Part shown: one piece after another, positions 46,322 through 62,764 of the stretch | Layout of the letters: every line of letters starts with the position of its first letter | Position numbering within the stretch: position 1 is the stretch's first letter | From: a virus | Taxonomy: Duplodnaviria; Caudoviricetes | Length of the DNA stretch: 64,000 nt | Direction: 5' to 3' (one strand) | IMG/VR virus record: IMGVR_UViG_3300021400_000034 | Location: 64,001-128,000 of that record | Notes under the pieces: model-generated | The model's database searches: none | The model's input: the letters and a program-made list of their open reading frames with translations, nothing else | What the model was told of the DNA's origin: nothing | Translations under genes and position numbers: made by a program

Positions 46322-46645
46322 TCATCCCCATCGATTATTGACGAAGTCGTAATTTCTTTCCCACCACTCTTCGCTAGCTTTTCTTCTATTCTCTAGATCC
46401 CGAGATTTCTTCAACGCTTGCTTATAGTAGCCGTCGTACTTTGTGATGAGCTTCTTAGTGCTCAGCTCAGCTGGTCTTCCGATCCACTGTGGGTTGTCCT
46501 GAAGGAACTTGATCTGCTCGTCTCTCTTTTTCAGCCAGATCTCTGAGATCTCCTTCCACTCTTCTGCCGTTCTCGGCAACTTAGACTCTAGAATGAGAGG
46601 CTCAGATGCTAAGACGTCGATCGCTTCCTCAAATGACATCTTCAT
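46322..46645 (-). CDS. putative head-packaged protein
   Basis: Leader MKMSFEEAIDVLASEPLILE. Confidence 0.7.
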   Translation of the reverse strand: MKMSFEEAIDVLASEPLILESKLPRTAEEWKEISEIWLKKRDEQIKFLQDNPQWIGRPAELSTKKLITKYDGYYKQALKKSRDLENRRKASEEWWERNYDFVNNRWG

Positions 46646-46776
46646 ATTGAAACCCTTTTCTAGTTGACTGACAGAATCTCTACTTCTGGACTGCCTTCAC
46701 TGAGAATATCGCTCAGAGCTTCGATGATCTCATCCTCGTCGTCCGGATTCTCTAGCCAGACAGTGTCTTGTCTAGC

Positions 46777-47673
46777 TTAGTCGCCCTGATACTTTGCTGT
46801 TCTATAGAACTCAGATGCGCCAGCCTGGAATGCGTCGTTAGCGTCAGCGCTCTTCTTAACTGCAGCTGCATCTTCTTCGTCGAGGAAGTCGTCAGCGTGT
46901 GCGAACTCGATAGCAGCGGGCATGAAGATGTCCATCGGAATGTACCAAGTGTTTCGGTTCTCGTCGCGGTATCTCTCTAGAGCAGCGCATGCCTTAGCCT
47001 TGCCGTTCGAGTTCTGGGCGAGAATTCTCAGCGCGTCGCTGTTTCCGAGAGTCACTTGCTCGATATTGATCGGAGTCTCGAACCGGAACGAGTCGACGCT
47101 GTTCTCGACTCTCATTGTGATCTTGTAAGGAATCTTGCTTCCGTCTAGCGGCTCAGCGCCAGGAAGGGCATCTTTGATATTCTTCATGAGCTCATCGAAG
47201 TCGTAGAAGTGATCAGCGTACTCGATCTTGACGATTTCGTATCCGTTCGCTACTAGCTTGTCGACAACCTTCCTCTTGTACTCTGGCCAGACTTCTAGGC
47301 ACTTCTTGTAGCGGTTGTAGATGTTCTGATTGTAGCGGCGTATCTCGGCGTCTCGTCCATCGTTCCGCACCTTCTCGTAGTGAGCGTTCGACAGGTAGTA
47401 GAGAGTCTCACGCTCTTTGCGGTCGAACAGGTCCTTGCCTCTTCTGTTAGCCCAGCCAGCGACGTCGTTGACTGCGAAAGGAGCAGCAGCGTCATCTGCT
47501 TTGCGCTTCTCTTCGTCTGTCAGCGGCTTCTTGCTGCGTTCGTATGAGAAGTCAGGGAAAGCGTCGATCAGCCTTCTAGCGGCAGCTTCTTTCTTGGTTC
47601 TGTCGAAAGATCTAGCTTCGGTGATGCTCATGCCGGATCTTCTGATAATTCTTAGCGCTTCGTGTAGTTTCAT
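46777..47673 (-). CDS. putative head-packaged protein
   Basis: Leader MKLHEALRIIRRSGMSITE; GATAAATA at 47687-47694. Confidence 0.75.
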   Translation of the reverse strand: MKLHEALRIIRRSGMSITEARSFDRTKKEAAARRLIDAFPDFSYERSKKPLTDEEKRKADDAAAPFAVNDVAGWANRRGKDLFDRKERETLYYLSNAHYEKVRNDGRDAEIRRYNQNIYNRYKKCLEVWPEYKRKVVDKLVANGYEIVKIEYADHFYDFDELMKNIKDALPGAEPLDGSKIPYKITMRVENSVDSFRFETPINIEQVTLGNSDALRILAQNSNGKAKACAALERYRDENRNTWYIPMDIFMPAAIEFAHADDFLDEEDAAAVKKSADANDAFQAGASEFYRTAKYQGD

Positions 47674-47692
47674 AATTTCCTCTTTTTATTTA

Positions 47693-48661
47693 TCACCAGA
47701 GACGGAAACGACTTCTACTGCGTCTACCATAGGATTTCTCACCTCCGAGATAGACAGAGTCCCATTCCTTCACGACGTCTCTCTCGAACAGGTTATCCAG
47801 GTAGCTGCCCTTGAATGCGCTATTTCCAGCATAGCTCACAGGTGTCAGCTTCTCTCTGGCGAGCTTCTCTGGATCGAACTTGTACTCGACCCACTTTCCT
47901 TGTCTGTTTCCTTCCTCTACGTCTTTCTTGAGCTTGTTGAAGCCTTCATCCGTTAGATAGTAGAAGTACTTGTGTCTTCCTCCGCCTGGCTCGCAGAGAA
48001 CAATGTGATTTCCCTGAGTCGCTTTGATCGCCGCAGCCTTCTCTTCTCCAGTGTCTTCTAGCTCATCCGTCTGACCGAACTTGTTTAGCTTCAGATAAGG
48101 GAACTTGCTCATCAGCTCTTCGCACTTCGCGAGCCAGATGCCGTGATGACCGTCTTTGCCCATCGACCTCGTCAGAGCGTTCCACCATCTTCTGCTTCTC
48201 GCCATGCCGTAGGCGTTAGCTCCTCTGATGTCTTCTCGGTCGATCTGTTGGTACGCCCACTGGTGAACCATCTCGTGAACTAAGACGTTTCTGAACGTCT
48301 GATAGTTTCGAACGTCTTCGTTTACTCGTATAGCCGAGCAGAATACCTCGTTCTTTCTAGGGTCATAGTCTGACGTGCACTTTCCAAGCGATCCAGACTT
48401 GCTCGGCATAAAGAAGCGTGGTTCTTTCAGCGTCCCTTCGAAGTACTTCTTGTTGAATATGCTCCACTGAACTTTGATGAATCCTGTGCTGACGTCGACT
48501 GGAGCTGCAGGATCAAGCTCTTTAGGTCCCCTAGGATTCTCTGATGAAGATGATGCAGCTTCAGCCTTTCTCTTCTCGCGACGATCCTTAGCTCTCGCTC
48601 TTCTCGCTTCTCTCTGCTCGGGAGTCAATTCTCGCTCAAGAATCATGTCTAGAAGGCTCAT
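47693..48661 (-). CDS. SprT-like zinc metalloprotease
   Basis: FNKKYFEGTL...VLVHEMVHQW (HExxH)...GHHGIW; leader MSLLDMILE. Confidence 0.8.
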   Translation of the reverse strand: MSLLDMILERELTPEQREARRARAKDRREKRKAEAASSSSENPRGPKELDPAAPVDVSTGFIKVQWSIFNKKYFEGTLKEPRFFMPSKSGSLGKCTSDYDPRKNEVFCSAIRVNEDVRNYQTFRNVLVHEMVHQWAYQQIDREDIRGANAYGMARSRRWWNALTRSMGKDGHHGIWLAKCEELMSKFPYLKLNKFGQTDELEDTGEEKAAAIKATQGNHIVLCEPGGGRHKYFYYLTDEGFNKLKKDVEEGNRQGKWVEYKFDPEKLAREKLTPVSYAGNSAFKGSYLDNLFERDVVKEWDSVYLGGEKSYGRRSRSRFRLW

Positions 48662-48927
48662 TCTACCACCTCCGGTCCAGCATCACGGTCGACGTAGACG
48701 GCGAGCCATACGCGCTCTTTAGCCGTCTCTAACGGGATGTCCTGATCGAAAGCCTCGAACATGACAGACTCTAGCTGGTCTAGATCGGGGCTGAAGTTCT
48801 CTTCCTCAGCCTTCTTCAAGACAGCTTTGCGCAAGGCGCTGATGTACTCAGCTTCCTTCTCCTCGACCTCGGTCAAGAACTGGACGCCTAGGTTGACCAA
48901 TTTGGTCAAAGATTCAGATAATCTCAT
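48658..48927 (-). CDS. putative head-packaged protein
   Basis: Leader MRLSESLTKLVNLGVQFLTE; TATAAATA at 48966-48973. Confidence 0.65.
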   Translation of the reverse strand: MRLSESLTKLVNLGVQFLTEVEEKEAEYISALRKAVLKKAEEENFSPDLDQLESVMFEAFDQDIPLETAKERVWLAVYVDRDAGPEVVE

Positions 48928-48946
48928 AAAATCTCCACTATAGGGG

Positions 48947-49006
48947 TTTAGAAAAGCTTCTGTTTTATTTATATTGTCTATGTAACCTCAACAAAAGGAC
49001 CAAACT
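48947..49006. promoter_or_regulatory. early promoter and conserved leader (+) overlapping late promoter (-)
   Basis: TTTAGA-N17-TATATT, TGTAACCTCAACAAAAGGACC; TATAAATA on - strand at 48966-48973. Confidence 0.7.
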
Positions 49007-49435
49007 ATGACCGGTAAAGAAAACATCGACAGATACGTCGAGGCGAGCAAAACGCTGGACAAGCTCTATGACTTGACGTACTGGGTAGCCAACAAGCTCG
49101 GTTCGATATATATCAGCGGCGCAGGATATTACGAGTTCAAGGGTATCGAACGGAAAGGTGACCGGTACGAGATCACGGTCGACTGGACCGTGTCGGGCGA
49201 AACTAATTACGGCGAGACGTTCACGGTTCCTGCAGAGCTGTGCGAGAAGTGCTTCTGCAAAGAGACACGAGACGAAGCGTATGCAGAACTGAAGAAGATC
49301 AAGGACGAGGAACGCCGTATTCGCGAAGCCGAAGAGAAGGCCAAGTTCGAGAAGGCGCAGGCTGAACAAAAAGCCTTTGAGAAGGAACGTCGTCGCAAGC
49401 AATACGAAGAGCTCAAGAAGGAATTCGGAGAATAA
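49007..49435 (+). CDS. early hypothetical protein
   Basis: Behind conserved leader; ends YEELKKEFGE. Confidence 0.75.
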   Translation: MTGKENIDRYVEASKTLDKLYDLTYWVANKLGSIYISGAGYYEFKGIERKGDRYEITVDWTVSGETNYGETFTVPAELCEKCFCKETRDEAYAELKKIKDEERRIREAEEKAKFEKAQAEQKAFEKERRRKQYEELKKEFGE

Positions 49436-49440
49436 TCTCT

Positions 49441-49668
49441 ATGAAGAAACTGCAAAAGTTCGCTAAGAAGATTGAAGAAGAGCTAGATCTCGACGGAGCT
49501 GAAGTCGAGATCATCACTACCTCGCTCGACGGCATACCTCGTGTAAAGGTGACCTGGCGAGGGATCAGCACTGACTTCACTTCGGAGAATATTGACAACT
49601 TCAATGTTGAAGAGTTCCGTGAGGCGCTCGTCGCTGAAGACGTATTCAGGAAAGGACTCGGAATATGA
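49441..49668 (+). CDS. hypothetical protein
   Basis: GGAG RBS. Confidence 0.65.
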   Translation: MKKLQKFAKKIEEELDLDGAEVEIITTSLDGIPRVKVTWRGISTDFTSENIDNFNVEEFREALVAEDVFRKGLGI

Positions 49669-50078
49669 GCGAACAAACGATGTCGAAAGAAGAATTTTCA
49701 GCTATATGCAAAGAGTGTGGACTTGAGGTCGAATATACCAAAATTGGTCCAGGAATGGACAATGTCGTAGCATACGTATCGTCACCTATGCTCAGAGACG
49801 GCAGATCTTCCTTTGCATGGTGGAGCAACTATGTTCTCTCGAACCACGGAATCTTCTATGGATTCTATGAAGCTCTATGGCGAGAGACGAGCACTGGAAA
49901 GTATACGCTGAACGGAAACGATCTAGGAGACTGCTTATCGTATGTCAATGATGAAGACGAACTCCGTGAAGTTTGTCTCAATGCGATTGATGCTTTGAAA
50001 CGACTTGAAAGAGACGAGTCATATCGGCCAAAGCATATAGACTTGAACCGAGGAAAGTATGAGCGAGAAAAAGAATAA
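49665..50078 (+). CDS. hypothetical protein
   Basis: ATGA overlap. Confidence 0.65.
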   Translation: MSEQTMSKEEFSAICKECGLEVEYTKIGPGMDNVVAYVSSPMLRDGRSSFAWWSNYVLSNHGIFYGFYEALWRETSTGKYTLNGNDLGDCLSYVNDEDELREVCLNAIDALKRLERDESYRPKHIDLNRGKYEREKE

Positions 50079-50253
50079 TAAGCTTTCGAAACCTATCTAT
50101 GCGCTGTATGGCGGACAACCTATGAAGCTGCCGCAAGATCTGATCCTGCTAGACTTCGCTTTGCGTGAGCTCAAACACGCAGGATACGATGGAGACCTGT
50201 ACGCGGACGCGAAGTGCAAGCGCTCGCTCGGACCTATGAAGAAATACCTTTAA
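50059..50253 (+). CDS. hypothetical protein
   Basis: GAGG RBS. Confidence 0.55.
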   Translation: MSEKKNNKLSKPIYALYGGQPMKLPQDLILLDFALRELKHAGYDGDLYADAKCKRSLGPMKKYL

Positions 50254-50264
50254 GGAGACAAACA

Positions 50265-50690
50265 ATGACAACACTATCCTATCTTCTCTTACTCGCTCCA
50301 GCCGCTGAAGGACTATGCATCGCGTGCGGACTCATGTCGGGAATTCTCGCTCTCGGCGGAGTCATATACATCATCTACATGTGCGGAGGCTTCAACACAT
50401 ACAACAATGATGAACCGCCAGCTGGAACTAGCAAGAAGTGGCCAGTGATCGCGTTCACGCTGACTATCGTCTTCGCTCTCATGGCTGCGATCATGCCAGA
50501 CCGCAAGACCGTCTACATGGTCGCTGGCGTCGAGACGATCAACCGCTTCTCACAGACTGAAGTCGCTAAGGAGCTCGGCGAGAGCGGAATGAACATCGTG
50601 AGGGACATCACGACGATGATCCACACCTACACGATGGACGCAGTCCGCGAGTCTAAGGCGAAGAACGGAGGCAGCGATGGCAGAAATTGA
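50265..50690 (+). CDS. membrane protein
   Basis: AAGGAG RBS before ATG 50265; TM helices; MPDRKTVYMVAG. Confidence 0.7.
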   Translation: MTTLSYLLLLAPAAEGLCIACGLMSGILALGGVIYIIYMCGGFNTYNNDEPPAGTSKKWPVIAFTLTIVFALMAAIMPDRKTVYMVAGVETINRFSQTEVAKELGESGMNIVRDITTMIHTYTMDAVRESKAKNGGSDGRN

Positions 50691-50767
50691 AAAGATGGGT
50701 TACAAGGTTCAGCTTTGTAAAAATGGCTCTGGCAGACTTGAATCTATCATAGTGAGGTGGTAAACTG

Positions 50768-51100
50768 ATGAGTACATGGAGAATTAAGGAAATCTTCAGT
50801 CCGAAGTACAATATGACGCTGTATATCCCGCAGCAGAAGGGGCTGTTCTTCTATAGCAGCTTCCCCTATAGTGAATACTGCGAATACATCGAGAAGCGGC
50901 ACAATATGACTGGCGAATTCGAGCTGGTCAAAGGGGACGGTCTTGATAATCGTGTCGGCTTCAAGACAGTTGAAGGCGCGAAGCGGATGATCAAGTATTA
51001 CCGAGAATACTGGTGGATTGTCGCCGAACACGAGAAGGCCGAAAAAGAAGCCCGGAAGAAGGGCAAGAAGTTCAAGAGCAGATACATCGTTGTGGACTAA
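50768..51100 (+). CDS. hypothetical protein
   Basis: GAGGTG RBS. Confidence 0.65.
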   Translation: MSTWRIKEIFSPKYNMTLYIPQQKGLFFYSSFPYSEYCEYIEKRHNMTGEFELVKGDGLDNRVGFKTVEGAKRMIKYYREYWWIVAEHEKAEKEARKKGKKFKSRYIVVD

Positions 51101-51127
51101 TGAAGAAACCTAAACACGGAGAAATAT

Positions 51128-52081
51128 ATGACCTCTGACAAAATCCAAGACATCATCGACCAGAACATCCAGCGTAGGCTGTCGAGCCGAGCGAACCTGC
51201 TCTTCTTGAAGCTCTGCATCAGCTCACTCTCTGAGAAGATCTGGATCGCTGGAAACTCTCTGAACGCTGGCGAGTGCCACGACATCGACGTCTTCTTCCC
51301 TAAGAAAGGCTACGGACTCGGAGGCTGGAACGAGGAAGAGATCGACCTAGACGGAATAGAGAACTGCATCGATGAGTACAACAAAGAGTTCTCCGAGAAG
51401 ATGGGCAAATGCGAGATTCTGCACACGAGCCAGAACGCTATCACGGCCGAGTTCAAAGGAGTCAAGTACCAGTTCTGCAAGTACCAGAAAGAGACGATCC
51501 AGGAGCTCGTCGAATCGTTCGACTACGCTCACATTCAGATCGGGTGCGTGGTTGACTTCGAAGAAGATGGAGAAGAGAACGAGCCCAAGGTCGACGAAGT
51601 CTACTGCACTGACGCTTATCTAGAGGCGCTGTTGACGCACCGGACGTGGTACGTGGGTTCTGACTATCCGCTAGGATCGATCTTCAGAGCAGAGAAGTAC
51701 AAGCGCTACGGCGAGATGCACAGCAGCGAGTACAAGAAGTCCGTCGTGAAGGCTCTCACTGACTTGATACGTCGCGGCTACAAGGACTACCAAGACTTCA
51801 AGGACTCGATCGGCGCAATCGATCTGCTGCTCTTCGACCGCTCTACGTCTGACTGCCTCTTCCACTACTTCGAGGCTTGCGCCGAGCGTGGTCTGGTCGC
51901 TTCGATCAAGTCTGGAGATGAGGAGAAGCTGGACCAGTGGCAGTTCGAATCGATGATGAATGATGAAGAGTTCCAAGATCCGAATATCAACCAAGAGAAG
52001 ACTCTAGACCTAGAAGAGCTCTTCGCTCCACCGAAAGAAGAACCTAAAGAAGAATCTAAAACCGAAGAGAAGAAAGAATGA
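51128..52081 (+). CDS. Pol-beta superfamily nucleotidyltransferase-like protein
   Basis: IWIAGNSL...HDIDVFF; QNAIT; SFDYAH; RAEKYKRYG. Confidence 0.65.
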   Translation: MTSDKIQDIIDQNIQRRLSSRANLLFLKLCISSLSEKIWIAGNSLNAGECHDIDVFFPKKGYGLGGWNEEEIDLDGIENCIDEYNKEFSEKMGKCEILHTSQNAITAEFKGVKYQFCKYQKETIQELVESFDYAHIQIGCVVDFEEDGEENEPKVDEVYCTDAYLEALLTHRTWYVGSDYPLGSIFRAEKYKRYGEMHSSEYKKSVVKALTDLIRRGYKDYQDFKDSIGAIDLLLFDRSTSDCLFHYFEACAERGLVASIKSGDEEKLDQWQFESMMNDEEFQDPNINQEKTLDLEELFAPPKEEPKEESKTEEKKE

Positions 52082-52413
52082 AGTTCGATGAAGCCAAAGA
52101 GATCGTAGACGAGTTATGGAAAGATCAACCAGATCTTGTCGTATTCGGAGTGAACGAATTCAACAATCCCACGTTGAGCGTCTCTTACGGGACTAACAAC
52201 AAGCAGTGGTTCAACATGGAGAAAGGTCAACACGGCTGGGACCTCTGGATCGACAACAGGTTCATCACGTACCGCATGTACACGCTCGACATTCGTCTTG
52301 AACCTGTGAAGATGAAGATGAGAAGCATAATGCTCAGCAAGCTTCAACCCGACATGCTCAGATCCTTCTTGATGGGTCAATTAGCGCTAGCTGCTGTTGC
52401 GCAAAGAAAGTAG
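52078..52413 (+). CDS. hypothetical protein (paralog of 53652-53969)
   Basis: MKFDEAK...DQPD...GW...LEPV...FL. Confidence 0.65.
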   Translation: MKFDEAKEIVDELWKDQPDLVVFGVNEFNNPTLSVSYGTNNKQWFNMEKGQHGWDLWIDNRFITYRMYTLDIRLEPVKMKMRSIMLSKLQPDMLRSFLMGQLALAAVAQRK

Positions 52414-52442
52414 ATCAGAGTACGCGTATAGGCTACAATAAT

Positions 52443-52470
52443 AGACCGAGATTGAAGTCTCGGTCTCTTT
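52443..52470. terminator. terminator between convergent genes
   Basis: AGACCGAGA-ttgaag-TCTCGGTCT-CTTT. Confidence 0.7.
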
Positions 52471-52474
52471 ATGT

Positions 52475-53302
52475 TTAGATGAAGTTCTTGATCAGTCCGA
52501 GCTCTTTCGACAGAGTCTTGGATATGTCGTCGAACACAGCAGTGATCTCGCTGTAGTCTTCGAACTTCTCGCCAGTAGCCTGAACAGTGTCGATGAAGTC
52601 TTCGATCTCTTCTACGGCTTCTTGAGCTTCGAAGTTCATAGAGTCGGCCTTCATCTCGCTCTGAAGGTTGAATCTGATGTTCTTTCCGCTAGCCAAGCAG
52701 ACTTCGACGAGCTCATCTGCGAAGTCTCTCAGAGCGTCGTAGATCGCCTCGAAGTGCGTGTGCTGGAATCCGGACTGGCAGCACCAGTGCCAGCAGTGAA
52801 CCTGGTCAGCGAACTGGAGTGACTTTCCAGCCAGCTCATATAGCTCTTCTACGTTAGCCTCTTCGAGATAGCTCTCGTTGATAGCTCTCTTTCCGGATTC
52901 CTTAAGAATCTTCATGGCTTCGTCCATTGACATTTCTTCTTTCATAACTTCCTTCCTATGCTCTCTTAATTTTGTCTTGAGTGAACCGAGATCGTCCACG
53001 AAGAATTTCGTTTCTTGCAGCTTTGACGGATAACCGTAGTAGTGAACTGCATAAATGACGTACTTGTAGCTGAAGTCTCTTATGAATCCGAGCTCGTCTG
53101 GTTTGTCATCGCCTACGTGATTGACTTCCTCCCATGAGCAGAGATTGACAGGGTCTACTCCACGAATTGCCCAGCCTAGACAAGTTAGCTCGAAACCGTC
53201 TCCGTGAAGCTTATTTGATGAGTGAACGGCAGCGACTCCACCGTTGCCCATGCTGTCGACTAGTTTATGTGCTGATTTAAGTGCTGAATCTACAAGACTC
53301 AT
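52475..53302 (-). CDS. two-domain protein with C-terminal Dps/ferritin-like (DUF5856-like) domain
   Basis: QVHCWHW...QHTHFEAIYDALRDFADELVE; internal linker MSMDEAMKILKESGKRAINE; late promoter at 53324-53331. Confidence 0.7.
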   Translation of the reverse strand: MSLVDSALKSAHKLVDSMGNGGVAAVHSSNKLHGDGFELTCLGWAIRGVDPVNLCSWEEVNHVGDDKPDELGFIRDFSYKYVIYAVHYYGYPSKLQETKFFVDDLGSLKTKLREHRKEVMKEEMSMDEAMKILKESGKRAINESYLEEANVEELYELAGKSLQFADQVHCWHWCCQSGFQHTHFEAIYDALRDFADELVEVCLASGKNIRFNLQSEMKADSMNFEAQEAVEEIEDFIDTVQATGEKFEDYSEITAVFDDISKTLSKELGLIKNFI

Positions 53303-53323
53303 TCTCGATTTCCTTATTCTCTT

Positions 53324-53370
53324 TATTTATATCCGCTCGGGTTTACAAAAATATAGAAGTTTCTTATATT
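53324..53370. promoter_or_regulatory. back-to-back late (-) and early (+) promoters
   Basis: TATAAATA (-) 53324-53331; TTTACA-N17-TATATT (+) 53342-53370. Confidence 0.7.
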
Positions 53371-53400
53371 TTCATTGTACAACTCGAAAACGGAGGATCT

Positions 53401-53652
53401 ATGTCCGCTATGAAGTACATTCTCGATAGTGATGTCGATGTTCAAGATCGACTGGGACTGTCGGTTTGTAAAGACCATGTCAAGGTGACTGGAGAATACA
53501 CGTCTGACTCTGTCGCCAAGTTCAAGCTCACCTGGAAGGCTGAGCAGGCTATGAGGAGGGCTCATCGCGGTCGCGTTCCGGTCTTGACTAAGACACACTT
53601 CTACTGCTTTGACGGCAGAGGAACCGCAGAACTAGGAAGAAAGGAGTACTGA
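53401..53652 (+). CDS. hypothetical protein
   Basis: GGAGG RBS before ATG 53401. Confidence 0.65.
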   Translation: MSAMKYILDSDVDVQDRLGLSVCKDHVKVTGEYTSDSVAKFKLTWKAEQAMRRAHRGRVPVLTKTHFYCFDGRGTAELGRKEY

Positions 53653-53969
53653 TGACTTTTGAAGAAGCTAAGCAGACAGCGCTAGACGTGATGAGCGACT
53701 ATCCCGACTGGATCGACGTTACAATTTCATCACAGGAAGGAAAGACGTTCGTCCAGATCATGTATGACAAGTCCCGCAAAGGAAAGCGTGATGAAGATAT
53801 GACGATCTGCGACGAGGGCTGGATAGTCTACAATCAGTGGTACGAGGATCTGAACCTGAAGCCCGTTCGAGGCATTCCTGAGTACTCGGCGCTGATAGGA
53901 ATCGAGCGCGGACATCTATACGAGTTCCTGTGTCGACAGATCGAGATGGTCTCACACATCACATACTAA
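53652..53969 (+). CDS. hypothetical protein (paralog of 52078-52413)
   Basis: MTFEEAK...DYPD...GW...LKPV...FL. Confidence 0.65.
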   Translation: MTFEEAKQTALDVMSDYPDWIDVTISSQEGKTFVQIMYDKSRKGKRDEDMTICDEGWIVYNQWYEDLNLKPVRGIPEYSALIGIERGHLYEFLCRQIEMVSHITY

Positions 53970-53986
53970 AATAAAGGAGACAAAAA

Positions 53987-54394
53987 ATGAAATGGACATA
54001 TAAGTATGAAGCAGAAATGGACACGAATGACGGAGACTATATTTATAAGTCAGGCGAACTTGGTGTCTATGATGACGCTGACATTGAACAGATGAAAGCA
54101 GTACACATGACTATGATGTACTTGAACGCTTATGCAGAGAAGTTTGATGATGGCAATGCAGACGATGATGAAGTAAGAGAGGCATTTGCGGAAAAGTGCA
54201 AGTCTTATGGACTTGAAGAAGCAGACTATAAGAATTTCCACATAGATGGATATCATTACAAACCAAGAGATCCAAACTGCGACAGCAATGCTCACGATCT
54301 GGAATTCTCATTCAAGCGTCTTCCTGCAGATGTCGTAGAACAGAACGTAGATGAGTTCGGCTTGAGACAGTACTACAATGTAAATAGAGGTTAA
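53987..54394 (+). CDS. hypothetical protein
   Basis: AAGGAG RBS. Confidence 0.7.
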   Translation: MKWTYKYEAEMDTNDGDYIYKSGELGVYDDADIEQMKAVHMTMMYLNAYAEKFDDGNADDDEVREAFAEKCKSYGLEEADYKNFHIDGYHYKPRDPNCDSNAHDLEFSFKRLPADVVEQNVDEFGLRQYYNVNRG

Positions 54395-54395
54395 T

Positions 54396-54680: not shown

Positions 54681-54694
54681 TCTAGAATTTACGG

Positions 54695-54753
54695 TTTAGA
54701 TTTCTCTCGGATTTACTTATATTTTCTCTGTAACTTCAACAAAGGACCAACTA
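54695..54753 (+). promoter_or_regulatory. early promoter and conserved leader
   Basis: TTTAGA-N17-TATATT; TGTAACTTCAACAAAGGACC. Confidence 0.75.
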
Positions 54754-55932
54754 ATGAGAATTGAGACTAAGTACATACAGTCAGACGCTCTGCGCTGCGG
54801 CATGGATCTCTGCAAGGAGATCAACAAGTTCGGCCATGAAGCTTACGTGGTCGGCGGCTGCGTCCGCGATCTCGTCCGCTGGGGCTTCGGTCAGACTGAC
54901 AAGCCCGAGATCCACGACGTGGACATCGCTACGAACATGCCAATCGATGCGCTGAAGAACTGCTTCCGCACGGAGAGCAACAACGGCGAAGCTCACGGCA
55001 CGATCCTCGTCTTCCACATCTACGGCTATCCGTTCGAAGTGACTCAGTTCCGCAAGGACGGCGCTTACAGCGACGGTCGTCATCCCGACACGGTAGACTT
55101 CACGAGAGACTTCAAGGAAGACGCTGCACGTCGAGACTTTACGATGAATGCTATCGGCATGGACGGTGACGGCAACCTGATCGATCCTTTCGACGGCATT
55201 CACGACATCGACGTCGGCATCGTTCGAGCTGTCGGCGACGCTGACGCACGCTTCAAGGAAGACTCCCTCCGCATCATTCGCGGCATCAGGTTCTCTGTCA
55301 ACTTCGGCTACGAGATCGAAGCTGAGACACAAGCTGCGATGAAGACGAACGCTGCTCTTCTGAACAGTCTCTCTAACGAGAGGGTCCGCAAAGAGATCGC
55401 TGCCGTCAAGAACAAGGACTGCGGCTTCCAGCTCTTCATGAACAAGCTCGGCAAGCTCGACGCGCTGGACAATCATCCTATGTTCGAGTGGATCGACTAC
55501 CACGCTCTTCACGTCGCTGCTCTGCGGTCTAGGGACTTCGGCAAGACTTCTGTCTTCGCTATGATGACTCTCTTCAGCCACCAGAGCGACAGACAAGCTG
55601 AGCTGTGCCTTCTCACGAGAGAAGAGAAGAAGCAAGTGAAGTGGTTCCAGAAGTTCTGGGCTAAGCGCGACGAGATGACGCTGCCTTGGGCAGAGCTCAT
55701 CGAGTTCGTCAAGGGCGACTGGAACACGTTCATCAGCATTCTCGACAATCGAGATCTTCCCGCTTGGGCGAACTACATCCCTCAGGCTATCGCTCTGAGC
55801 AAGATGGAGATCGATCAAGCGGCCATCAGCGGCAAGCTGATGGATGAAGGCTATGAGCCTGGTCCCGTCTTCGGCGACATGGTTCGAGCCGAGATCCAGA
55901 AGATCTACCAACAAGAAGTGGATAAGATGTAA
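54754..55932 (+). CDS. cca: tRNA nucleotidyltransferase (CCA-adding enzyme, class II)
   Basis: VVGGCVRD, DVDIAT, EVTQFR, YSDGRHPD loop, RRDFTMNA, RFKEDSLRIIR, ERV. Confidence 0.9.
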   Translation: MRIETKYIQSDALRCGMDLCKEINKFGHEAYVVGGCVRDLVRWGFGQTDKPEIHDVDIATNMPIDALKNCFRTESNNGEAHGTILVFHIYGYPFEVTQFRKDGAYSDGRHPDTVDFTRDFKEDAARRDFTMNAIGMDGDGNLIDPFDGIHDIDVGIVRAVGDADARFKEDSLRIIRGIRFSVNFGYEIEAETQAAMKTNAALLNSLSNERVRKEIAAVKNKDCGFQLFMNKLGKLDALDNHPMFEWIDYHALHVAALRSRDFGKTSVFAMMTLFSHQSDRQAELCLLTREEKKQVKWFQKFWAKRDEMTLPWAELIEFVKGDWNTFISILDNRDLPAWANYIPQAIALSKMEIDQAAISGKLMDEGYEPGPVFGDMVRAEIQKIYQQEVDKM

Positions 55933-55937
55933 ATAAC

Positions 55938-55978
55938 TTGTTTACAAATTGTTCAGACTTTGTTTAGTCTTTGTTTAG
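55938..55978 (+). repeat. four 8-bp direct repeats at 11-bp period
   Basis: TTGTTTAC, TTGTTCAG, TTGTTTAG, TTGTTTAG at 55938, 55949, 55960, 55971. Confidence 0.65.
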
Positions 55979-55982
55979 GGAC

Positions 55983-56016
55983 AAAAAGAGAGACGGTCTT
56001 CACGGCCGTCTCTTTC
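55983..56016. terminator. bidirectional terminator between convergent genes
   Basis: A-run, AGAGACGGTC-ttcac-GGCCGTCTCT, TT. Confidence 0.7.
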
Positions 56017-56033
56017 TCGTTAGCGGAATTTCA

Positions 56034-56795
56034 TCAGGACTCGTCGTTCTCCTGCTCTTCAAGAAAGCGATCCATCTGCTCAGCGGCTTCCTTCGGCGTG
56101 TAGCCGTCTTTGAAAGCCTGAATGAACTCTCCTCTCCACTCGTCAGTCACATAAGAGTTAGCAGTGACTGGACCGTAGCCGAGCTTTATCATCTCCCTCT
56201 TGCACATGTCCATCCAGTCGCTAGCGTCAGTGTTGCTCTTGTCGACGCGACGACCAGACTCACGGATGATCTCTAGCGCTTCTTCGACTGACATGCTCTC
56301 GTTCTTCTTGCCGAGCAGCTGCTGTCCGATCCGCTCGATGATCTGGTCAGTGTTGAGAGCTCCGTCCTGGACGAGCTTCAAGATGTCGTATCCGCGAGAA
56401 GCCAAGAACTCTTTAGGATCTAGATTCTTGAGACCACATAGAGTCAGAACGACGTGGTCGAACTGAGCCTTCTGGACGCGATCCATAGTCTGGATGCGCT
56501 TGACTGCCTTCTTCTTCTGGAGCGCAGGTGCGCTGTCGACGATCTCGGTAGCGTATCTCTCGAACGACTCGGTCAATCTGTCCCACTTAGAGCAGTTGTC
56601 ACGGATCGAAGAAGCGCAGTCGAACTCGCTCATTCTGTCAGCGTAGAAGTCTCGAATCCAAGACTCCGCATGTTTCATCTTGCTAGGATCGATGACGATT
56701 CCTATAGAGCCTAGAACGTCAAGAACGCGGTTCTTGTAGCTCTTGTAGCTGTCGCCGAAGAATCCTTCGTTGATGCACTCTCCGAATGTTCTCAT
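56034..56795 (-). CDS. putative head-packaged multi-segment protein
   Basis: Leader MRTFGECINE; internal RLTE-S and KKNE-SMSVEEALEIIRESGRR. Confidence 0.7.
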   Translation of the reverse strand: MRTFGECINEGFFGDSYKSYKNRVLDVLGSIGIVIDPSKMKHAESWIRDFYADRMSEFDCASSIRDNCSKWDRLTESFERYATEIVDSAPALQKKKAVKRIQTMDRVQKAQFDHVVLTLCGLKNLDPKEFLASRGYDILKLVQDGALNTDQIIERIGQQLLGKKNESMSVEEALEIIRESGRRVDKSNTDASDWMDMCKREMIKLGYGPVTANSYVTDEWRGEFIQAFKDGYTPKEAAEQMDRFLEEQENDES

Positions 56796-57022
56796 TACTG
56801 ATACTCCCAGTGAAGGTTTCTGATGCCGCCGTCATAGTCGAAAGCGCGGCGGACCGGACGAACCTTCTTCCTCTTGGTCTCTTCGATCTTAGCTCTCACA
56901 GTGCCACGCTTTGCGGGAGCAGCCTTCTTAGGATCAGCCTTCTTCTGAACGGAGTTGAACTCCTTCTCGTACTCTGCGAACATAGCTAGCAGTTCGGGAT
57001 CTTTGATTTCGCTTAAGTCCAT
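56795..57022 (-). CDS. small basic late protein
   Basis: TATAAATA at 57043-57050; GAGG RBS; TAATG coupling. Confidence 0.65.
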   Translation of the reverse strand: MDLSEIKDPELLAMFAEYEKEFNSVQKKADPKKAAPAKRGTVRAKIEETKRKKVRPVRRAFDYDGGIRNLHWEYQ

Positions 57023-57042
57023 GATATTACCTCAGTTTATGT

Positions 57043-57117
57043 TATTTATACTTTATCTATTTAGATTTCTCACGGATTTTCTTATATTTACTGTGTAACT
57101 TCAACAAAGGACCAGCT
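57043..57117. promoter_or_regulatory. back-to-back late (-) promoter and early (+) promoter with conserved leader
   Basis: TATAAATA (-); TTTAGA-N17-TATATT; TGTAACTTCAACAAAGGACC. Confidence 0.75.
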
Positions 57118-57489
57118 ATGAAGAGAATCATCAACACCTCTATCATGAGGAAAGCGTGCCGCATCGAATACAAGACCGAGGACGGCTTCATCACATTGAG
57201 CTTCAATGAAGATCAGACCGAGTACACGATCAGTCCGATCAAGAACAGCGAATACCTGGTTCTGATCCAGACTGAAGGCGCGTCGGAAGGACCTATGACG
57301 GCTGTCCCGTGGTGCGATCCGGTCGACACTTGGCTGAGCGAAGGCCGCTTGTCCATCTACGACGAGAGCCAGATGGACGTAAACACTGTCTTCCTCGCTA
57401 CGATGATGTATGCAGAGCTCCAGAAGCTCAACAAGAAGATGAAGATAGCTAAAGCGGCTGTCGAACTCGGAAAAGCCCTAGAAGTATAA
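57118..57489 (+). CDS. early hypothetical protein
   Basis: Behind conserved leader. Confidence 0.7.
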   Translation: MKRIINTSIMRKACRIEYKTEDGFITLSFNEDQTEYTISPIKNSEYLVLIQTEGASEGPMTAVPWCDPVDTWLSEGRLSIYDESQMDVNTVFLATMMYAELQKLNKKMKIAKAAVELGKALEV

Positions 57490-57512
57490 ATATCCTATAA
57501 AGAGGAATTTAT

Positions 57513-58475
57513 ATGCGGAAACTAATCTCAGAAAAGCGAGAGAGGAAGACTTTCGACACATTCATGACATATCTGATGGATCAGGACGGCAGGTGCTCTG
57601 CTGACGGCGGAGACCACACCTTCTACTGTCTCAAGCTGAACGACGAGAACTTCAGCTTCGACGGCTACGACAAGTTCAAGGAACAGATCGACAAGGAAGG
57701 GCTCTACGACTGGTCCTGGGTCGCAGGTCTGATTCCGAACAAGAACCTGGAAGACGGAAAGGTTCCAGTCAGCTGGCTTCCGATCTTCGGCGATCCTAAC
57801 CGCTATGTAACGAAATGGTTACGTAACGGCACGCCGTCTGGCGCAGTGGAAGAAGTCTTCCGTGACCGCAGAATGAAGATCAAGGACCGCATCGACTACT
57901 TCGCTATTCCAGCAGAAGAGCAGCTGAGCTTGAACGCTCTCAAGGAAGAGCTCGAGAAGATCGGACTTCCTTGCCGCATCAGAAGCCATCACCGCAAGGG
58001 CGACTTCTTGGAGACGAACCTCGAGTTCTCTCAAGAAGCATGCAAGAAGTGGAACGACATTCCCGTCTCGGGCGGCTACAAGATCGTATGGCTCATCCGC
58101 AACAAGTTCGTCATCAACAAGCACAAGTTCAACTCCGTCCAGAAAGTCGTAGACTACTTCAAGGAGAACAAGGATCTCTACGAGATCGCTGAAGCTAAGG
58201 AAACTATCAAGAAGGCTGGAAAGAAGCTCATCAAAGAGTCTAGCTATTCCTTCGAGAAGATGAAGAAGATCACGGAGATCCTCTACGACAACATCGAAGA
58301 GCTGAACTACGACGACGCTCAAGACATCGCAGACTACGTCTCCGAGAAGATGGAATCCGAAGACGTGGACCGTGAGTACGTAGCAGAGACGCTAGAGCAG
58401 ATGCTAGACGACTGCGGCATCCGCATCTCCTTCGACCTGTCTACTCGTCTCGCTAGCAAGATCATAGCGCTATAA
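57513..58475 (+). CDS. putative head-packaged two-segment protein
   Basis: TATAAATA 57485-57492; leader MRKLISE; internal IAEAKETIKKAGKKLIKE-S. Confidence 0.75.
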   Translation: MRKLISEKRERKTFDTFMTYLMDQDGRCSADGGDHTFYCLKLNDENFSFDGYDKFKEQIDKEGLYDWSWVAGLIPNKNLEDGKVPVSWLPIFGDPNRYVTKWLRNGTPSGAVEEVFRDRRMKIKDRIDYFAIPAEEQLSLNALKEELEKIGLPCRIRSHHRKGDFLETNLEFSQEACKKWNDIPVSGGYKIVWLIRNKFVINKHKFNSVQKVVDYFKENKDLYEIAEAKETIKKAGKKLIKESSYSFEKMKKITEILYDNIEELNYDDAQDIADYVSEKMESEDVDREYVAETLEQMLDDCGIRISFDLSTRLASKIIAL

Positions 58476-58495
58476 ATAAGAAAAAGGAATTTGGA

Positions 58496-59458
58496 ATGAA
58501 AAAGTTGACTGAAGCAATGCTTGTTCTAGAACGTTCTGGTCTCCTCATAGAAGCATATCCAGGTGAAGGCTACAAGAAGCCAGTGCTGCAAATGCTTCAA
58601 GAGATCGAAGATAATGACCGAGATCTCGGAAAGCTAGTAGACTTCATAATCAAAGACAAGTGGGGCGACATCCAGAAGGCATTCAACGAAGCGTCAAGCG
58701 AGTTCCGTGAGATCAAGTCAGATACGAGCTGGAAAGGAGATACCTACTACGCTGCTTGGTTCAAAGAAGGATTTGCTCAGAATAGCCGCGATGCTAGAAG
58801 CTACGGAAGATACATATTCTCTAAGGTCAGTAAGTTGGCTGGAATTCCGATCAAGTTCAGCAAAGAAGGCGGCGCTAGAAAGCGTGGATCCTGGACTCAG
58901 GCCTGGTGCATAGACTTCAACATTCTGACGAAGGATGACGGATCTTATGATCTCAGGGCCATCGCTGAAGTAGTAGGAAATGACGACAAGTACTGGGAAA
59001 TCCTCGATGAGCTGTATGCTCACAGGAAGGACCGACATGACTCTCATACTCCGAGCGAAGAGGAGAAGAACATAGAAAGTGCGAGAGAAACAAGTATCAT
59101 TAGAGCTCTCAACAGCATCAGCAGAGCTCCTCTGACAGAGAAAGACTGGGAGAGATTAAAAAGCAGCACAATCGGAAGACAGCTAGGAACGCTAGACAAG
59201 CTGAGCGACGAGAAGCTTAACTCGAGAAAGCACGCTATCCTTCTCATGATGGCTAAGAAGTGTCATGGTGAAATTGGCGAGGAGATCGACTTTGGAGACG
59301 AAGATGTAAGCATTACTAAGGTGAGCAGATTCCTGAGGAGATGCGGAATCTCTATACCTGACGCGCGCACATATAGGGAACTTGGAGATATTATCTTGGA
59401 TCGACTGAGAGAGGTCAAAGATTACTTCAAAGATGAGCTAGAAGTTCTCGATCAGTAA
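58496..59458 (+). CDS. putative head-packaged protein
   Basis: TATAAATA 58471-58478; leader MKKLTEAMLVLERSGLLIE. Confidence 0.75.
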   Translation: MKKLTEAMLVLERSGLLIEAYPGEGYKKPVLQMLQEIEDNDRDLGKLVDFIIKDKWGDIQKAFNEASSEFREIKSDTSWKGDTYYAAWFKEGFAQNSRDARSYGRYIFSKVSKLAGIPIKFSKEGGARKRGSWTQAWCIDFNILTKDDGSYDLRAIAEVVGNDDKYWEILDELYAHRKDRHDSHTPSEEEKNIESARETSIIRALNSISRAPLTEKDWERLKSSTIGRQLGTLDKLSDEKLNSRKHAILLMMAKKCHGEIGEEIDFGDEDVSITKVSRFLRRCGISIPDARTYRELGDIILDRLREVKDYFKDELEVLDQ

Positions 59459-59471
59459 TTAAATCTTTACA

Positions 59472-59504
59472 TTTCCGGTGGTTTTTATAATCGCCGGAAA
59501 TTTT
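59472..59504 (+). terminator. terminator-like hairpin
   Basis: TTTCCGGTG...CGCCGGAAA-TTTT. Confidence 0.55.
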
Positions 59505-59529
59505 GTAGATTTACTGTGGAAGGCTTATA

Positions 59530-59961
59530 ATGAAACCTACATTCAAAGTACTATACGAAGAGTTCAACAAGAACGAGATCCAGTTCGCGAACTGGTTCGA
59601 CTTCAGTCAGTGGTCAGTCATCAAGAGAGAGCTCTCTGGTCTGATCAAGAAATTCAGAAAGCTAGAGAAGCTAGACTTCAAGAAATCCCAGAAGGAAGTG
59701 AAAGAATTCTTCACGAAGAACATGTGGTCGGACGAGTTCAAGAAGTGCAAGAGTCTTGACGAGCTAATCGAGTACTCTATCGAGATGCGACTAGAGCGTC
59801 TCTGCATGTACTACTTCTGGTCTAAGTGCGAATATGAAGTGATCGTGTCTTCCTGGCCTCCACGCGAAGGATCAGAGGAGAAGATCGACATCTACGATCA
59901 GCTCAAAGCGAACTGGGATATATTCAAAGAACTCGTATTCAAAGAGTTGAAGCTCAGATGA
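59530..59961 (+). CDS. conserved-looking phage hypothetical protein
   Basis: YYFWSKCEYEVIV...KIDIYDQL. Confidence 0.75.
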   Translation: MKPTFKVLYEEFNKNEIQFANWFDFSQWSVIKRELSGLIKKFRKLEKLDFKKSQKEVKEFFTKNMWSDEFKKCKSLDELIEYSIEMRLERLCMYYFWSKCEYEVIVSSWPPREGSEEKIDIYDQLKANWDIFKELVFKELKLR

Positions 59962-60701
59962 CGCAAGACGAAAAGAACAAGTTCGACAGTCTGACGGACA
60001 CTTCGTATCTATTCAGACTGATCTTCGAGAGAGCTGGTCTCGATCTCACGTGCATACAGATCGACGGAAAAGACTGCTGGCACTTATACTACAAGACGGC
60101 CATCGTAGGAGCAGTCACGACCAGGCTATGGGAGACAGAGGCTGACTCTTGCACCTTCACGAACCTGCATCTCTACAAGTACTTCACTGACAAGTTTCCG
60201 AAAGTGAAAGACTTCAGGATGTCAGAGTTCTACGAGTACCGAGATGGAAAGCGGGTCAAGTTCTCGTTCGACAAGTTCGAAGACTACACAGACCAGATCA
60301 AGAAGTGCTCAGAGTCGCTGGTGAAGCATGATGAAGATGAAGAAGATCCCGACAATCTAGAGGACGCTATCGCTAGACTGAAGGACTTCTGCGACGAGTT
60401 TGACGAGAAGTTCTCGAACAACACGCTCTTCAAAGACGTGAGGGCGCTGCTGAACGAGAACGAGAGACTTAACAAAAAACTGAAAGAGGTTGACAATGGC
60501 AATGACACTAGAAGAAGCAGTTCAGAAGAGGGAAGAGCTAGTAGCGGAGCAGAGGAAGTATGCTCACGCGATCAAGATTCTGAAGTCGGAGAGCATTCCG
60601 GAGAACGGAGCGATCAAGACAGCGATCGCTCTGTACGAGTCGAAGATCAAGATGATCGACGAGAATCTGAAGGATCTAGCGAATCAGGCTCTGGATGCTG
60701 A
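59958..60701 (+). CDS. hypothetical protein (last about 68 codons overlap next gene)
   Basis: ATGA overlap at start; tail reads through next gene in another frame. Confidence 0.65.
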   Translation: MTQDEKNKFDSLTDTSYLFRLIFERAGLDLTCIQIDGKDCWHLYYKTAIVGAVTTRLWETEADSCTFTNLHLYKYFTDKFPKVKDFRMSEFYEYRDGKRVKFSFDKFEDYTDQIKKCSESLVKHDEDEEDPDNLEDAIARLKDFCDEFDEKFSNNTLFKDVRALLNENERLNKKLKEVDNGNDTRRSSSEEGRASSGAEEVCSRDQDSEVGEHSGERSDQDSDRSVRVEDQDDRRESEGSSESGSGC

Positions 60702-60903
60702 GAAGCCGGAGTGGACTATCGAGTTCAACTTCGAGGGTGAGAGCACTTACATCACTGAGTGCAAGATCGGCATCGAGAAGAACCCAGACAAAGATGATCT
60801 GATGACGTGGGACTCTAAGGAGTCTGCAGAAGAGTTCGCTAAGTGGTACGGGTACAAGCACGGCTGGAAGGTCGTTCCAGTCTCTCAGTACAAGAAGAAG
60901 TAA
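60496..60903 (+). CDS. hypothetical protein
   Basis: GAGG RBS; strong codon bias in this frame. Confidence 0.7.
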   Translation: MAMTLEEAVQKREELVAEQRKYAHAIKILKSESIPENGAIKTAIALYESKIKMIDENLKDLANQALDAEKPEWTIEFNFEGESTYITECKIGIEKNPDKDDLMTWDSKESAEEFAKWYGYKHGWKVVPVSQYKKK

Positions 60904-60906
60904 TCG

Positions 60907-61824
60907 ATGAAGCTGTTCGTAATCTCCGACATACACACGGACGTCTGGTTTCCTTATGCGGTAGAGAAAGACCGCTGGAAGCTCGATGATCCTCCTGAGT
61001 CAGCATCGAGGGACACGCTCGAGCACATCTGGAAGATGTACGAATATCCTCTAGACGTGGACGCTATCTTGGTGGCCGGAGACATAGCGAACGACTATCT
61101 GACGACGACATACACGCTCAAGTGGCTGTCGGAGAAGTACAAGAAGGTCTACTTCGTCGTCGGAAATCACGAGTTGTGCGTACGTGGAGGAACTCCGAGC
61201 AAGAGCAACCTGCAGTTCTTGAACAGCTACGAGAAAGTGACTAACCTGGGACGCTACGCTGACTCCCTAGGAAACTGCTATCTCCTCGACGCGTCGATGC
61301 GCGACGGAATCGCTGGGACTATGGGCTTCGCCGACTTCAAGTGCTGCTGCTACGACGTCGCCTCAGAAGTCAGAATGAAGCTCGCTTGGCGAAGGTCATG
61401 GTTTGACGGGAATCACTGGAAGCTGCACAGCATGAATCCTGACGACATCTGGGAGTCAGAGAGGGTCCGCATGCACGATCTGATCGGCGGAAAGCCAAAG
61501 GTGCTAGTAACTCACTTCACGCCTATTCAGCTCGGGATCACCTTCGACGCTAGGAACGATCCAGGAAACGCTTTCTTCTTTTTCGACGCTAAAGAGTTCT
61601 TGGAGGAGTTCGAAGAGGACGCTTATTGGGTGTGCGGGCATACGCACTACCACTATAAGGCAGTATACACGAACGCTAAAGGAGCCAAAGTCACTATCCT
61701 GTGTAACCCGAACGGCTATCCAGACAGCTCCCATACAGCGCTCTATGCGCCGAGCGAGAAGCGTCCTAAGACTGCGACATCGATAGGTCTGACTGAAAAC
61801 GAGCACTTCATCATCGAGATATAA
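60907..61824 (+). CDS. calcineurin-like metallophosphoesterase
   Basis: ISDIH, AGDI, GNHE, VTH, CGHTH, NPNGY. Confidence 0.9.
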   Translation: MKLFVISDIHTDVWFPYAVEKDRWKLDDPPESASRDTLEHIWKMYEYPLDVDAILVAGDIANDYLTTTYTLKWLSEKYKKVYFVVGNHELCVRGGTPSKSNLQFLNSYEKVTNLGRYADSLGNCYLLDASMRDGIAGTMGFADFKCCCYDVASEVRMKLAWRRSWFDGNHWKLHSMNPDDIWESERVRMHDLIGGKPKVLVTHFTPIQLGITFDARNDPGNAFFFFDAKEFLEEFEEDAYWVCGHTHYHYKAVYTNAKGAKVTILCNPNGYPDSSHTALYAPSEKRPKTATSIGLTENEHFIIEI

Positions 61825-61858
61825 ATAAAGAGAATAACATTCAAGGAGTTTTTCTAAG

Positions 61859-62764
61859 ATGACTACTGAAAACGAAAACATCAAGGACGAAGAGCTGAAC
61901 GAAGCTGAGCTCAGCGACGTGAAGAACTCGATCGCCTCTCTCTGCAAGAAGTACCTCACTGGCTCGTTCTTCGACAAGCTGGTCGACACGAGTGGAATCA
62001 AGATCGCCAAGGACATCCTTCTCGGCGACCTGAAGAACATGATCGGCAAGGGCACTTCTGGTCCTGCAGCTAAGAAGTTCGCTATCGCTATCCAGATGGC
62101 TAAGAATCCTGTGGCAGTCGACACTATCATGTCGAACTACATGCTCAAGGGCGACGGCATGGGATCTGGCATCGGCTACAGCGAGTCTGCCGAGATTCAG
62201 GGATTCCGCGAGTATCTCACTGAAGCCAAGAAGGGCGGATGCTGCGGCGGAAAGAAGAAGCCGTCCGAAGAAGAGATCGAAGAAGCTATCAAGGTCGTGG
62301 AGGCTGAAGGCTACAAAGTCAGCCGCATCGAAGAGTCCAAGGAAGACAAGAGCTTCGTCACCGAAGAAGAGATCGAGAAGGCTAAGAAGCTCGTCGAGTC
62401 TCGCGGATTCAAGGTTCGCGAGAAGAGAGTCAACGAGTCCGAAGAGGAATACCTGGTCTTGGAGATCCCAGCTGACAAGCTCGGATTCGACGTCGACGAA
62501 GTAGAGACTCTCATCGAGATTGCTATGAGCGACAGATCAGTTCCGACCTATCTGCGAAACAGCGTCGAGCACATTTCTACTGATCACGACGACGGAACAG
62601 TACATGTTATGGTCTACGATGCAGAAGACGCTGAAGAGGCTAAGGAAACGATCATCAAGCTGATCGACGCATTACTGGAGAACGCTACGGGCATCGAAGC
62701 CGAGATCTCCGAAGATCTTCTCGACAACTACAGAAACCTCATCGACAAGGCTGTAGAAGTCTAA
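61859..62764 (+). CDS. acidic putative head-packaged/core polyprotein
   Basis: TATAAATA 61820-61827; FREYLTE-A and two EEIE[EK]Axx[VL]VExxG[YF]KV...E-S repeats. Confidence 0.75.
   Translation: MTTENENIKDEELNEAELSDVKNSIASLCKKYLTGSFFDKLVDTSGIKIAKDILLGDLKNMIGKGTSGPAAKKFAIAIQMAKNPVAVDTIMSNYMLKGDGMGSGIGYSESAEIQGFREYLTEAKKGGCCGGKKKPSEEEIEEAIKVVEAEGYKVSRIEESKEDKSFVTEEEIEKAKKLVESRGFKVREKRVNESEEEYLVLEIPADKLGFDVDEVETLIEIAMSDRSVPTYLRNSVEHISTDHDDGTVHVMVYDAEDAEEAKETIIKLIDALLENATGIEAEISEDLLDNYRNLIDKAVEV

Follow-up and report, generated by a model that had tools for sequence, protein, structure and literature searches.

In bacteriophage T4, the internal proteins IPI-III and Alt carry a capsid-targeting sequence (CTS) which is removed by the prohead protease gp21 (Mullaney and Black 1996, as reviewed in PMC9026906, PMC5694885 and PMC3012670). 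According to the same reviews, the first ten residues of IPIII are sufficient for head incorporation, and gp21 removes propeptides by cutting after Glu. In the giant phages phiKZ, 201phi2-1 and SPN3US, the propeptides of head and ejection proteins are cut by gp21-related proteases after S/A/G-x-Glu (PMC5694885, PMC7411985, PMC10052503), and in the hyperplastic regions of T4-like phages gene shuffling is mediated by PeSL promoter–terminator cassettes (PMC4122927, PMC2839356). The 64,000-nucleotide window analysed here (bases 64001–128000 of a 243,336-bp IMG/VR phage genome) encodes proteins with unrelated bodies which share a module of about 20 residues. In its Glu-ended form, this module may represent a capsid-targeting signal combined with a prohead-protease joint, i.e., a longer functional counterpart of the T4 CTS, and we rate the chances of this reading as about even.

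The genome has terminal repeats and belongs to an uncultured rumen phage, which is T4-like because it encodes a gp23-type major capsid protein, a head scaffolding protein and a gp21-family prohead protease. The last, a Peptidase_S77 protein (PF03420, 105.9 bits, above the cut-off; genome positions 55335–55778), was one of two proteins for which an earlier note on this DNA had proposed to look. The other, a gp55-like sigma factor, was not recovered: the T4 gp55 query gave no match in the genome and no gp55 homologue was confirmed, a candidate of 190 amino acids (aa) being rejected since it had only a 22-residue stretch in common and no family match. Gene numbers used below (g001–g310) refer to the 310 calls of a simple codon-usage caller.

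The module is laid out as a helix with Glu-Ala, followed by Gly and a short hydrophobic stretch, the profile consensus being M-s-h-x-E-A-h-x-h-L-x-x-x-G-h-x-h-(h)-x-E. Two regular expressions for it matched 12 and 14 times in the gene calls, as against means of 1.0 and 0.8 (maximum 4) in 200 shuffled proteomes, which is an enrichment of about 12-fold. A profile built from these matches, of the kind suggested in the earlier note, extended the set to about 25 genes across the whole genome; searched against all six T4 reading frames, it gave no match at E < 0.05, and therefore the module is not generic to phage N-termini. Once the module was masked, the bodies proved unrelated by BLASTP, with the sole exception of one paralogue family (g043, g044 and g046, outside the window). 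The claim of a common module on unrelated bodies is thereby borne out, together with its four long examples, all of which are N-terminal. Three are on the minus strand: 46586–46645 (end I-L-E|S, the bar marking the putative cut) in the 107-aa open reading frame (ORF) 46322–46645, 47617–47673 (I-T-E|A) in the 298-aa ORF 46777–47673, and 48868–48927 (L-T-E|V) in the 89-aa ORF 48658–48927. The fourth, on the plus strand at 58496–58552 (L-I-E|A), leads the 320-aa ORF 58496–59458, a gene which is absent from the close relative introduced below.

The N-terminus is the position of the module in most genes carrying it. However, the earlier idea of an address label does not cover all copies, since some connect two domains and others form a C-terminal tail. 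Four window genes have an internal module, two proteins carry it in tandem, and in three genes, all outside the window, it is C-terminal. The internal copies are found on the minus strand at 52874–52933 (I-N-E|S; ORF 52475–53302, between an N-domain and a Dps-like, DUF5856, four-helix bundle) and 56235–56294 (no [ILV]-x-E end; ORF 56034–56795), and on the plus strand at 58179–58241 (I-K-E|S; ORF 57513–58475) and 62270–62428 (two tandem copies in ORF 61859–62764, of which the relative's orthologue has three).

This variety of N-terminal, internal, C-terminal and tandem positions speaks for another explanation, in which the module serves for docking to, or oligomerisation with, a partner that has nothing to do with the head (a host protein, a phage enzyme modifying tagged proteins, or the protein itself) and the Glu is part of a binding motif and not a cut site. 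We consider this rather unlikely. It would accommodate the copies in which the Glu site is missing, i.e., half of them, and it gains something from three of ten proteins with a sub-threshold resemblance to the first part (helix-Gly-strand) of the PASTA domain; no partner gene, however, was seen in the neighbourhoods that were read. As an identity for the module, PASTA itself (PF03793) was rejected, the best score being 17.3 bits against a cut-off of 23.2 over model positions 9–37 only of a domain of about 64 residues. The same applies to the SHOCT-like short C-terminal domain (PF22746; 17.4 bits against 27, over 15 residues of one protein) and to other known small domains, for which only sub-threshold matches were obtained.

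An end of the form [ILVM]-x-E within 3–8 residues of the Gly is present in 13 of the 26 module copies, while the background is 11–13% (p ~ 1e-6). The proposal that the module ends in [ILV]-x-E thus stands for half of the copies, and for the junctions of three protein families in which the Glu is invariant, but it does not extend to the other half.

The link to T4-type late promoters, which the earlier note had drawn, is firm. The window contains 11 TATAAATA boxes where 0.85 would be expected, and the genome has 48, mostly in intergenic positions and co-oriented with the genes. When [T/G]ATAAATA boxes within 130 nt upstream were counted, 13/25 module genes had one as compared to 41/282 other genes (Fisher p = 4e-5), and the median distance to the nearest upstream box was 46 nt for module genes and 2841 nt for the others (Mann-Whitney p = 2e-7). 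On the minus strand of the window, a GATAAATA box at 47687–47694 lies 13 nt upstream of the ORF starting at 47673 and opens a late unit whose second gene is ORF 46322–46645; TATAAATA boxes lie at 48966–48973 (38 nt upstream of the ORF starting at 48927), 53324–53331 (21 nt upstream of that starting at 53302) and 57043–57050 (opening the unit from 57022 to 56034). On the plus strand, TATAAATA boxes are located at 57485–57492, 58471–58478 and 61820–61827, which is 20, 17 and 31 nt upstream of ORFs 57513–58475, 58496–59458 and 61859–62764, respectively. Judging from these directly upstream boxes, the module genes would mostly be expressed late, together with the head proteins.

A private late box accompanies 11/12 genes whose module has the [ILVM]-x-E end but only 2/13 genes without such an end (Fisher p = 2e-4), which means that the helix-Gly part is the more widespread one and that the Glu-ended form is the late-gene form. 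This tight coupling to private late promoters counts against a docking peptide for a non-head partner. The Glu-less half of the copies is not directly late. A side observation concerns the tandem, translationally coupled paralogues g040–g046 (L005, genome 38598–41377), which have module-like N-termini with neither a Glu site nor a private late box.

The exchange of domains at the Glu was followed in three families of homologues drawn from a collection of 5.8 billion proteins (metagenomes). In the family of ORF 57513–58475 (58 homologues), one body is combined with four alternative leaders or joints, all ending in h-x-E at the same alignment column: a 7-residue leader, which is the variant of this genome; the complete module (about 30 proteins); an additional domain of 110 residues with an internal module behind it (about 20 proteins); and the same additional domain with the T4-CTS-like peptide K-P-F-K-Q-F-L-N-E|A behind it, the last two variants together making up the approximately 25 homologues with an extra N-domain. 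Behind the internal module of the same family, a 104-residue domain, itself ending in V-N-E|S, is inserted in four proteins, the C-terminal domain is different in three, and two proteins lack the body altogether, only one module standing between the extra N-domain and the C-domain. The DUF5856 family (ORF 52475–53302, 120 homologues) includes many free-standing forms of 151–156 residues led by the module as well as proteins in which the module joins the body to at least six different N-terminal domains; in two proteins the module stands at the extreme N-terminus and the joint is reduced to ..S-I-N-E|S. The family of ORF 46777–47673 (19 homologues) retains the leader at 37% identity, and in one of its proteins the leader is fused to a truncated body right behind I-T-E|A.

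At four junctions in these three families, P1 is Glu in 52/52, 47/47, 120/120 and 19/19 sequences (at the second, the register of nine sequences was corrected by eye), P3 is I, V or L in all but one junction sequence, and P2 is variable. The gp21 protease of T4 recognises (L/I)-x-E, and the T4 record gives I-A-E|A for IPII/III, L-T-E|A for gp23 and L-R-E|S for gp24. As judged from the alignments, the junction pattern is that of the T4 gp21 sites, and the Glu marks the exact point behind which domains have been inserted, exchanged or lost.

Here the docking-peptide explanation meets a difficulty. One junction can have, in place of the module, a 7-residue remnant or a T4-CTS-like peptide, both of which retain only h-x-E, and another can have ..S-I-N-E|S alone; hence it is the protease-type motif that stays constant, and not the helix.

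On the preferred reading of the module as a targeting signal with a protease joint, it would represent a portable propeptide and joint composed of an amphipathic helix (M-s-h-x-E-A-h-x-h-L), a Gly turn and hydrophobic residues leading to [I/L/V]-x-Glu. We suppose that the helix docks a late accessory protein onto the scaffolding core of the prohead and that the gp21-type protease then cuts after the Glu. Cutting inside the head would remove an N-terminal leader or separate the domains of a mosaic protein, which would be present in the virion and could be delivered into the host. Since the joints are alike, the “cargo” domains would be recombinable at them, so that recombination may add, drop or exchange domains.

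The same joints might have arisen in another way. It can be proposed that the module is a leader of small late proteins only, that its internal copies are accidents of gene fusion in which an upstream stop was lost, the downstream protein perhaps still being made from its own start, and that nothing is cut. Joints would then coincide with modules because fusions occur at gene boundaries; Met is indeed usually retained at the first position of internal copies, and in the 275-aa fused form of DUF5856 the start region with which the free-standing 156-aa form begins (M-K-E-K-M..) is present in full. Nevertheless, we regard this scenario as distinctly unlikely. Internal translation starts were considered and rejected, as no consistent Shine-Dalgarno or ribosome-binding site precedes the internal Met codons, and they survive only as a part of this fusion scenario. 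Several internal modules have no Met, for example at the N-junction of the 450-aa forms, and the inserted domain is flanked on both sides by h-x-E|S with no module on its far side. Moreover, fusion leaves the purpose of the N-terminal leader unexplained and, for the N-terminal copies, is compatible with the targeting-signal reading.

Domain exchange and deletion which stop exactly at modules could also mean that the module has no function in the protein and is a conserved patch kept for homologous recombination between cassettes, as the PeSL motifs are for early genes. The shuffling mediated by PeSLs is documented (PMC4122927), composite terminator–late-box elements precede some module genes, and five window module genes are missing from the close relative. 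We find this very improbable: the module copies are only about 30–50% identical to each other at the protein level, which is too diverged for efficient homologous recombination, and the amphipathic pattern at the amino-acid level, with its invariant Glu and variable P2, points towards selection on the peptide. That the module loci are themselves PeSL cassettes (a terminator stem-loop plus an early promoter) was rejected, because the T-run is fused to a late box at only two loci of the genome and the promoters are late-type.

These two loci, where a terminator hairpin and T-run are fused to the box (TTTTTC-TATAAATA), are located at genome 128774–128795 (window coordinates 64774–64795, just beyond the window end) and 204725–204746. 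In a low-GC lineage (G006), a hairpin and T-run fused to a CATAAATA box were seen near 48830 and 50284. Such terminator–promoter–leader units are self-contained and reminiscent of PeSL elements, but their promoters are late-type. Separately, window positions 44001–46282 form a low-GC island (0.37 against 0.49) containing a minus-strand 242-aa ORF (45542–46270), whose late mRNA may be leaderless because its GATAAATA box is only 4 nt from the ATG.

Structure prediction (AlphaFold2 with family alignments) was applied to two proteins, ORF 52475–53302 and the relative's module-led homologue of ORF 57513–58475. In the first model there are two confident domains, and residues 116–143 between them, including the module, have a per-residue confidence (pLDDT) below 50 save for a lone helix. 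In the second, residues 2–13 form a helix, the lowest confidence (pLDDT < 50) falls on residues 20–22, i.e., the predicted cut, and a second low-confidence coil follows the internal module. A low-confidence, coil-flanked module between confident domains lies outside both neighbouring folds, and we therefore take it, on these models, to be an exposed, disordered linker element. A lone helix predicted in a disordered stretch is likewise expected of a motif that folds on binding, which is to the credit of the docking-peptide explanation. The C-terminal domain of ORF 52475–53302 (DUF5856; window 52475–52873, minus strand) has a Dps-like ferritin fold according to Foldseek (probability 1.00), with a target-normalised TM of 0.6–0.65 and an E of only about 0.01; the model of the ORF 57513–58475 family gave nothing significant in the same search.

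Several observations weigh against the targeting-signal reading. The module profile, run against six-frame T4, detects no similarity to the T4 CTS MKTYQEFIAE. Besides the 13 of 26 copies that have no Glu site, and the fact that these Glu-less copies are not directly behind late boxes, the three C-terminal copies are difficult to understand, as a cut there would take off 0–4 residues. The tandem copies (62270–62428 and a 136-aa protein outside the window) resemble a repeated binding unit more than a signal. At P1', where T4 sites have small residues, Lys, Tyr, Glu or Val are often found. The sequences are close relatives within each family, and the invariance of the Glu is partly due to shared descent. 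Finally, a Dps-like cargo, if the predicted fold is right, would normally be a 12-mer, and it is difficult to see how such an assembly would be ejected through a tail.

Resemblance to the T4 CTS is limited to some short joints, namely the internal peptide at 62198–62224 (plus strand, L-T-E|A; ORF 61859–62764) and the K-P-F-K-Q-F-L-N-E|A of the homologues mentioned above. As a class, short leaders are not significantly enriched (13 matches to a loose pattern against 6.8 in shuffles, maximum 14), and a strict N-terminal pattern is only 2.4-fold enriched; such T4-like leaders were taken into account only where orthology supports them. The list of short leaders in the earlier note is accordingly upheld in part. 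The 10-residue T4-CTS-like leader at 56766–56795 (minus strand, I-N-E|G; ORF 56034–56795) is conserved in the relative's orthologue, and the 7-residue leader at 57513–57533 (plus strand, I-S-E|K; ORF 57513–58475) is supported by the homologue junction, but the ORFs at 13395 and 30065 contain plain [ILV]-x-E matches 20–30 residues inside and have no late box. The 9-residue leader at 48635–48661 (minus strand, I-L-E|R) of the SprT-like metalloprotease ORF 47693–48661 is a weak, low-information match. In the relative's SprT-like gene (L051 region, G001 173264–173426), the basic N-terminal extension is kept in frame, the leader is lost, and there is no ATG, GTG or TTG start upstream of the extension; this gene may thus be truncated or decaying.

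Some further observations concern the head proteins. Among relatives, the N-termini of the capsid protein differ by indels of 0–8 residues directly before an [ILV]-x-E|W site (L015:9011–10345; loci L016–L041), and the major capsid propeptide in this lineage would be only 5–13 residues long as compared to 65 in T4. The prohead protease (L007:2276–2965, genome 55275–55964) and an unrelated acidic 308-aa late protein (L076:3681–4607, genome 220680–221606) have only their first 16–18 residues in common. This shared start, K-K-x-L-L-N-E and then [A/D]-[Y/F]-L-S-D-V, is retained in the relative and looks like a third leader type, possibly a core-protein propeptide. The 136-aa late protein (L014, genome 222125–222535) consists of two tandem modules and a strongly acidic tail, a layout that recalls gp67, a core protein of the T4 prohead whose N-part is helical and whose tail is acidic. 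Homology to gp67 was rejected: the N-terminus of gp67 looks reminiscent of the module, but the profile does not detect it and no sequence homology was found.

The set of module genes varies between close relatives, in agreement with the earlier suggestion that it is “swappable”. Five window module genes (g145, g146, g148, g167 and g174) have no homologue in a 247,923-bp relative whose capsid protein is 93% identical, and this relative has a module-led late gene of its own adjoining the orthologue of ORF 52475–53302. Distant homologues of ORF 46777–47673 occur in phage contigs of about 33% GC. A 105-kb fragment of this lineage encodes a Peptidase_S77 protein and seven ORFs with an N-terminal module, one of them directly downstream of the protease gene and several with a terminator hairpin and a CATAAATA box upstream. 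By its sequence, then, the module is present in at least two phage lineages. Among cultured phages, no DNA or protein match was found to the window region or to two module proteins; the ESM Atlas search returned only unnamed viral clusters, all below 0.9, and no description of the module or of cargo polyproteins in T4-like phages was found among the papers searched.

One can suggest, tentatively and with more doubt than belief, that these data reflect a widespread “cargo grammar” of uncultured T4-like jumbo phages, in which any domain, alone or in a chain, can be supplied with a unit made up of its own late promoter, a docking helix of 20 residues and a site for the prohead protease. Such proteins would be loaded on the scaffold core, cut in the capsid and delivered with the DNA, forming an exchangeable kit of dozens in place of the three or four of T4. 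If this is true, far more proteins are loaded into the head than the handful known from T4, and they are reshuffled domain by domain at protease joints. A considerable part of the “hypothetical late genes” found in variable regions of jumbo phages from gut and rumen would then have an explanation. Proteins delivered by the virion could be predicted from metagenomes by a rule based on sequence, and a second, longer tag would be available with which foreign proteins can be packaged into T4-type capsids. Should the reading be wrong, a strongly selected short peptide on unrelated proteins in at least two phage lineages still calls for an explanation.

Comparison with the described systems places the module closest to the T4 CTS. 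Both are short common peptides, N-terminal in most of the module genes here, on otherwise unrelated, highly variable accessory proteins; a hydrophobic-x-Glu end is seen in half of the module copies; both have late promoters and a gp21-family protease encoded in the genome, and in both cases the gene set varies between close relatives. However, the module, whose function is putative, is twice as long (about 20 residues), has a helix-Gly-strand layout, occurs also as an internal joint, in tandem and at the C-terminus, and has no Glu site in half of its copies.

The propeptides of phiKZ, 201phi2-1 and SPN3US are similar in that many inner-head proteins are processed after Glu, that paralogues have conserved N-termini, and that these propeptides are longer than those of T4 and are thought to target the prohead. 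They differ in being family-specific and 20–130 residues long, whereas here one portable 20-residue unit is found on unrelated bodies; at P3 they have small residues (Ala, Ser, Gly) instead of I, L or V, and domain shuffling at the sites is not described there. With PeSL cassettes, the module genes share the exchange of variable genes between close relatives at short conserved elements and, in some cases, the terminator hairpin fused to a late box; PeSLs, however, are non-coding DNA with early promoters, while here a coding peptide is conserved at the amino-acid level under late promoters. Finally, the mosaic proteins resemble viral polyproteins, in which independent domains are strung together via a repeated short motif fitting the specificity of a protease from the same genome, with the difference that here it is accessory cargo, in place of replication or structural proteins, that would be cut, and that the putative cut would take place inside the prohead.

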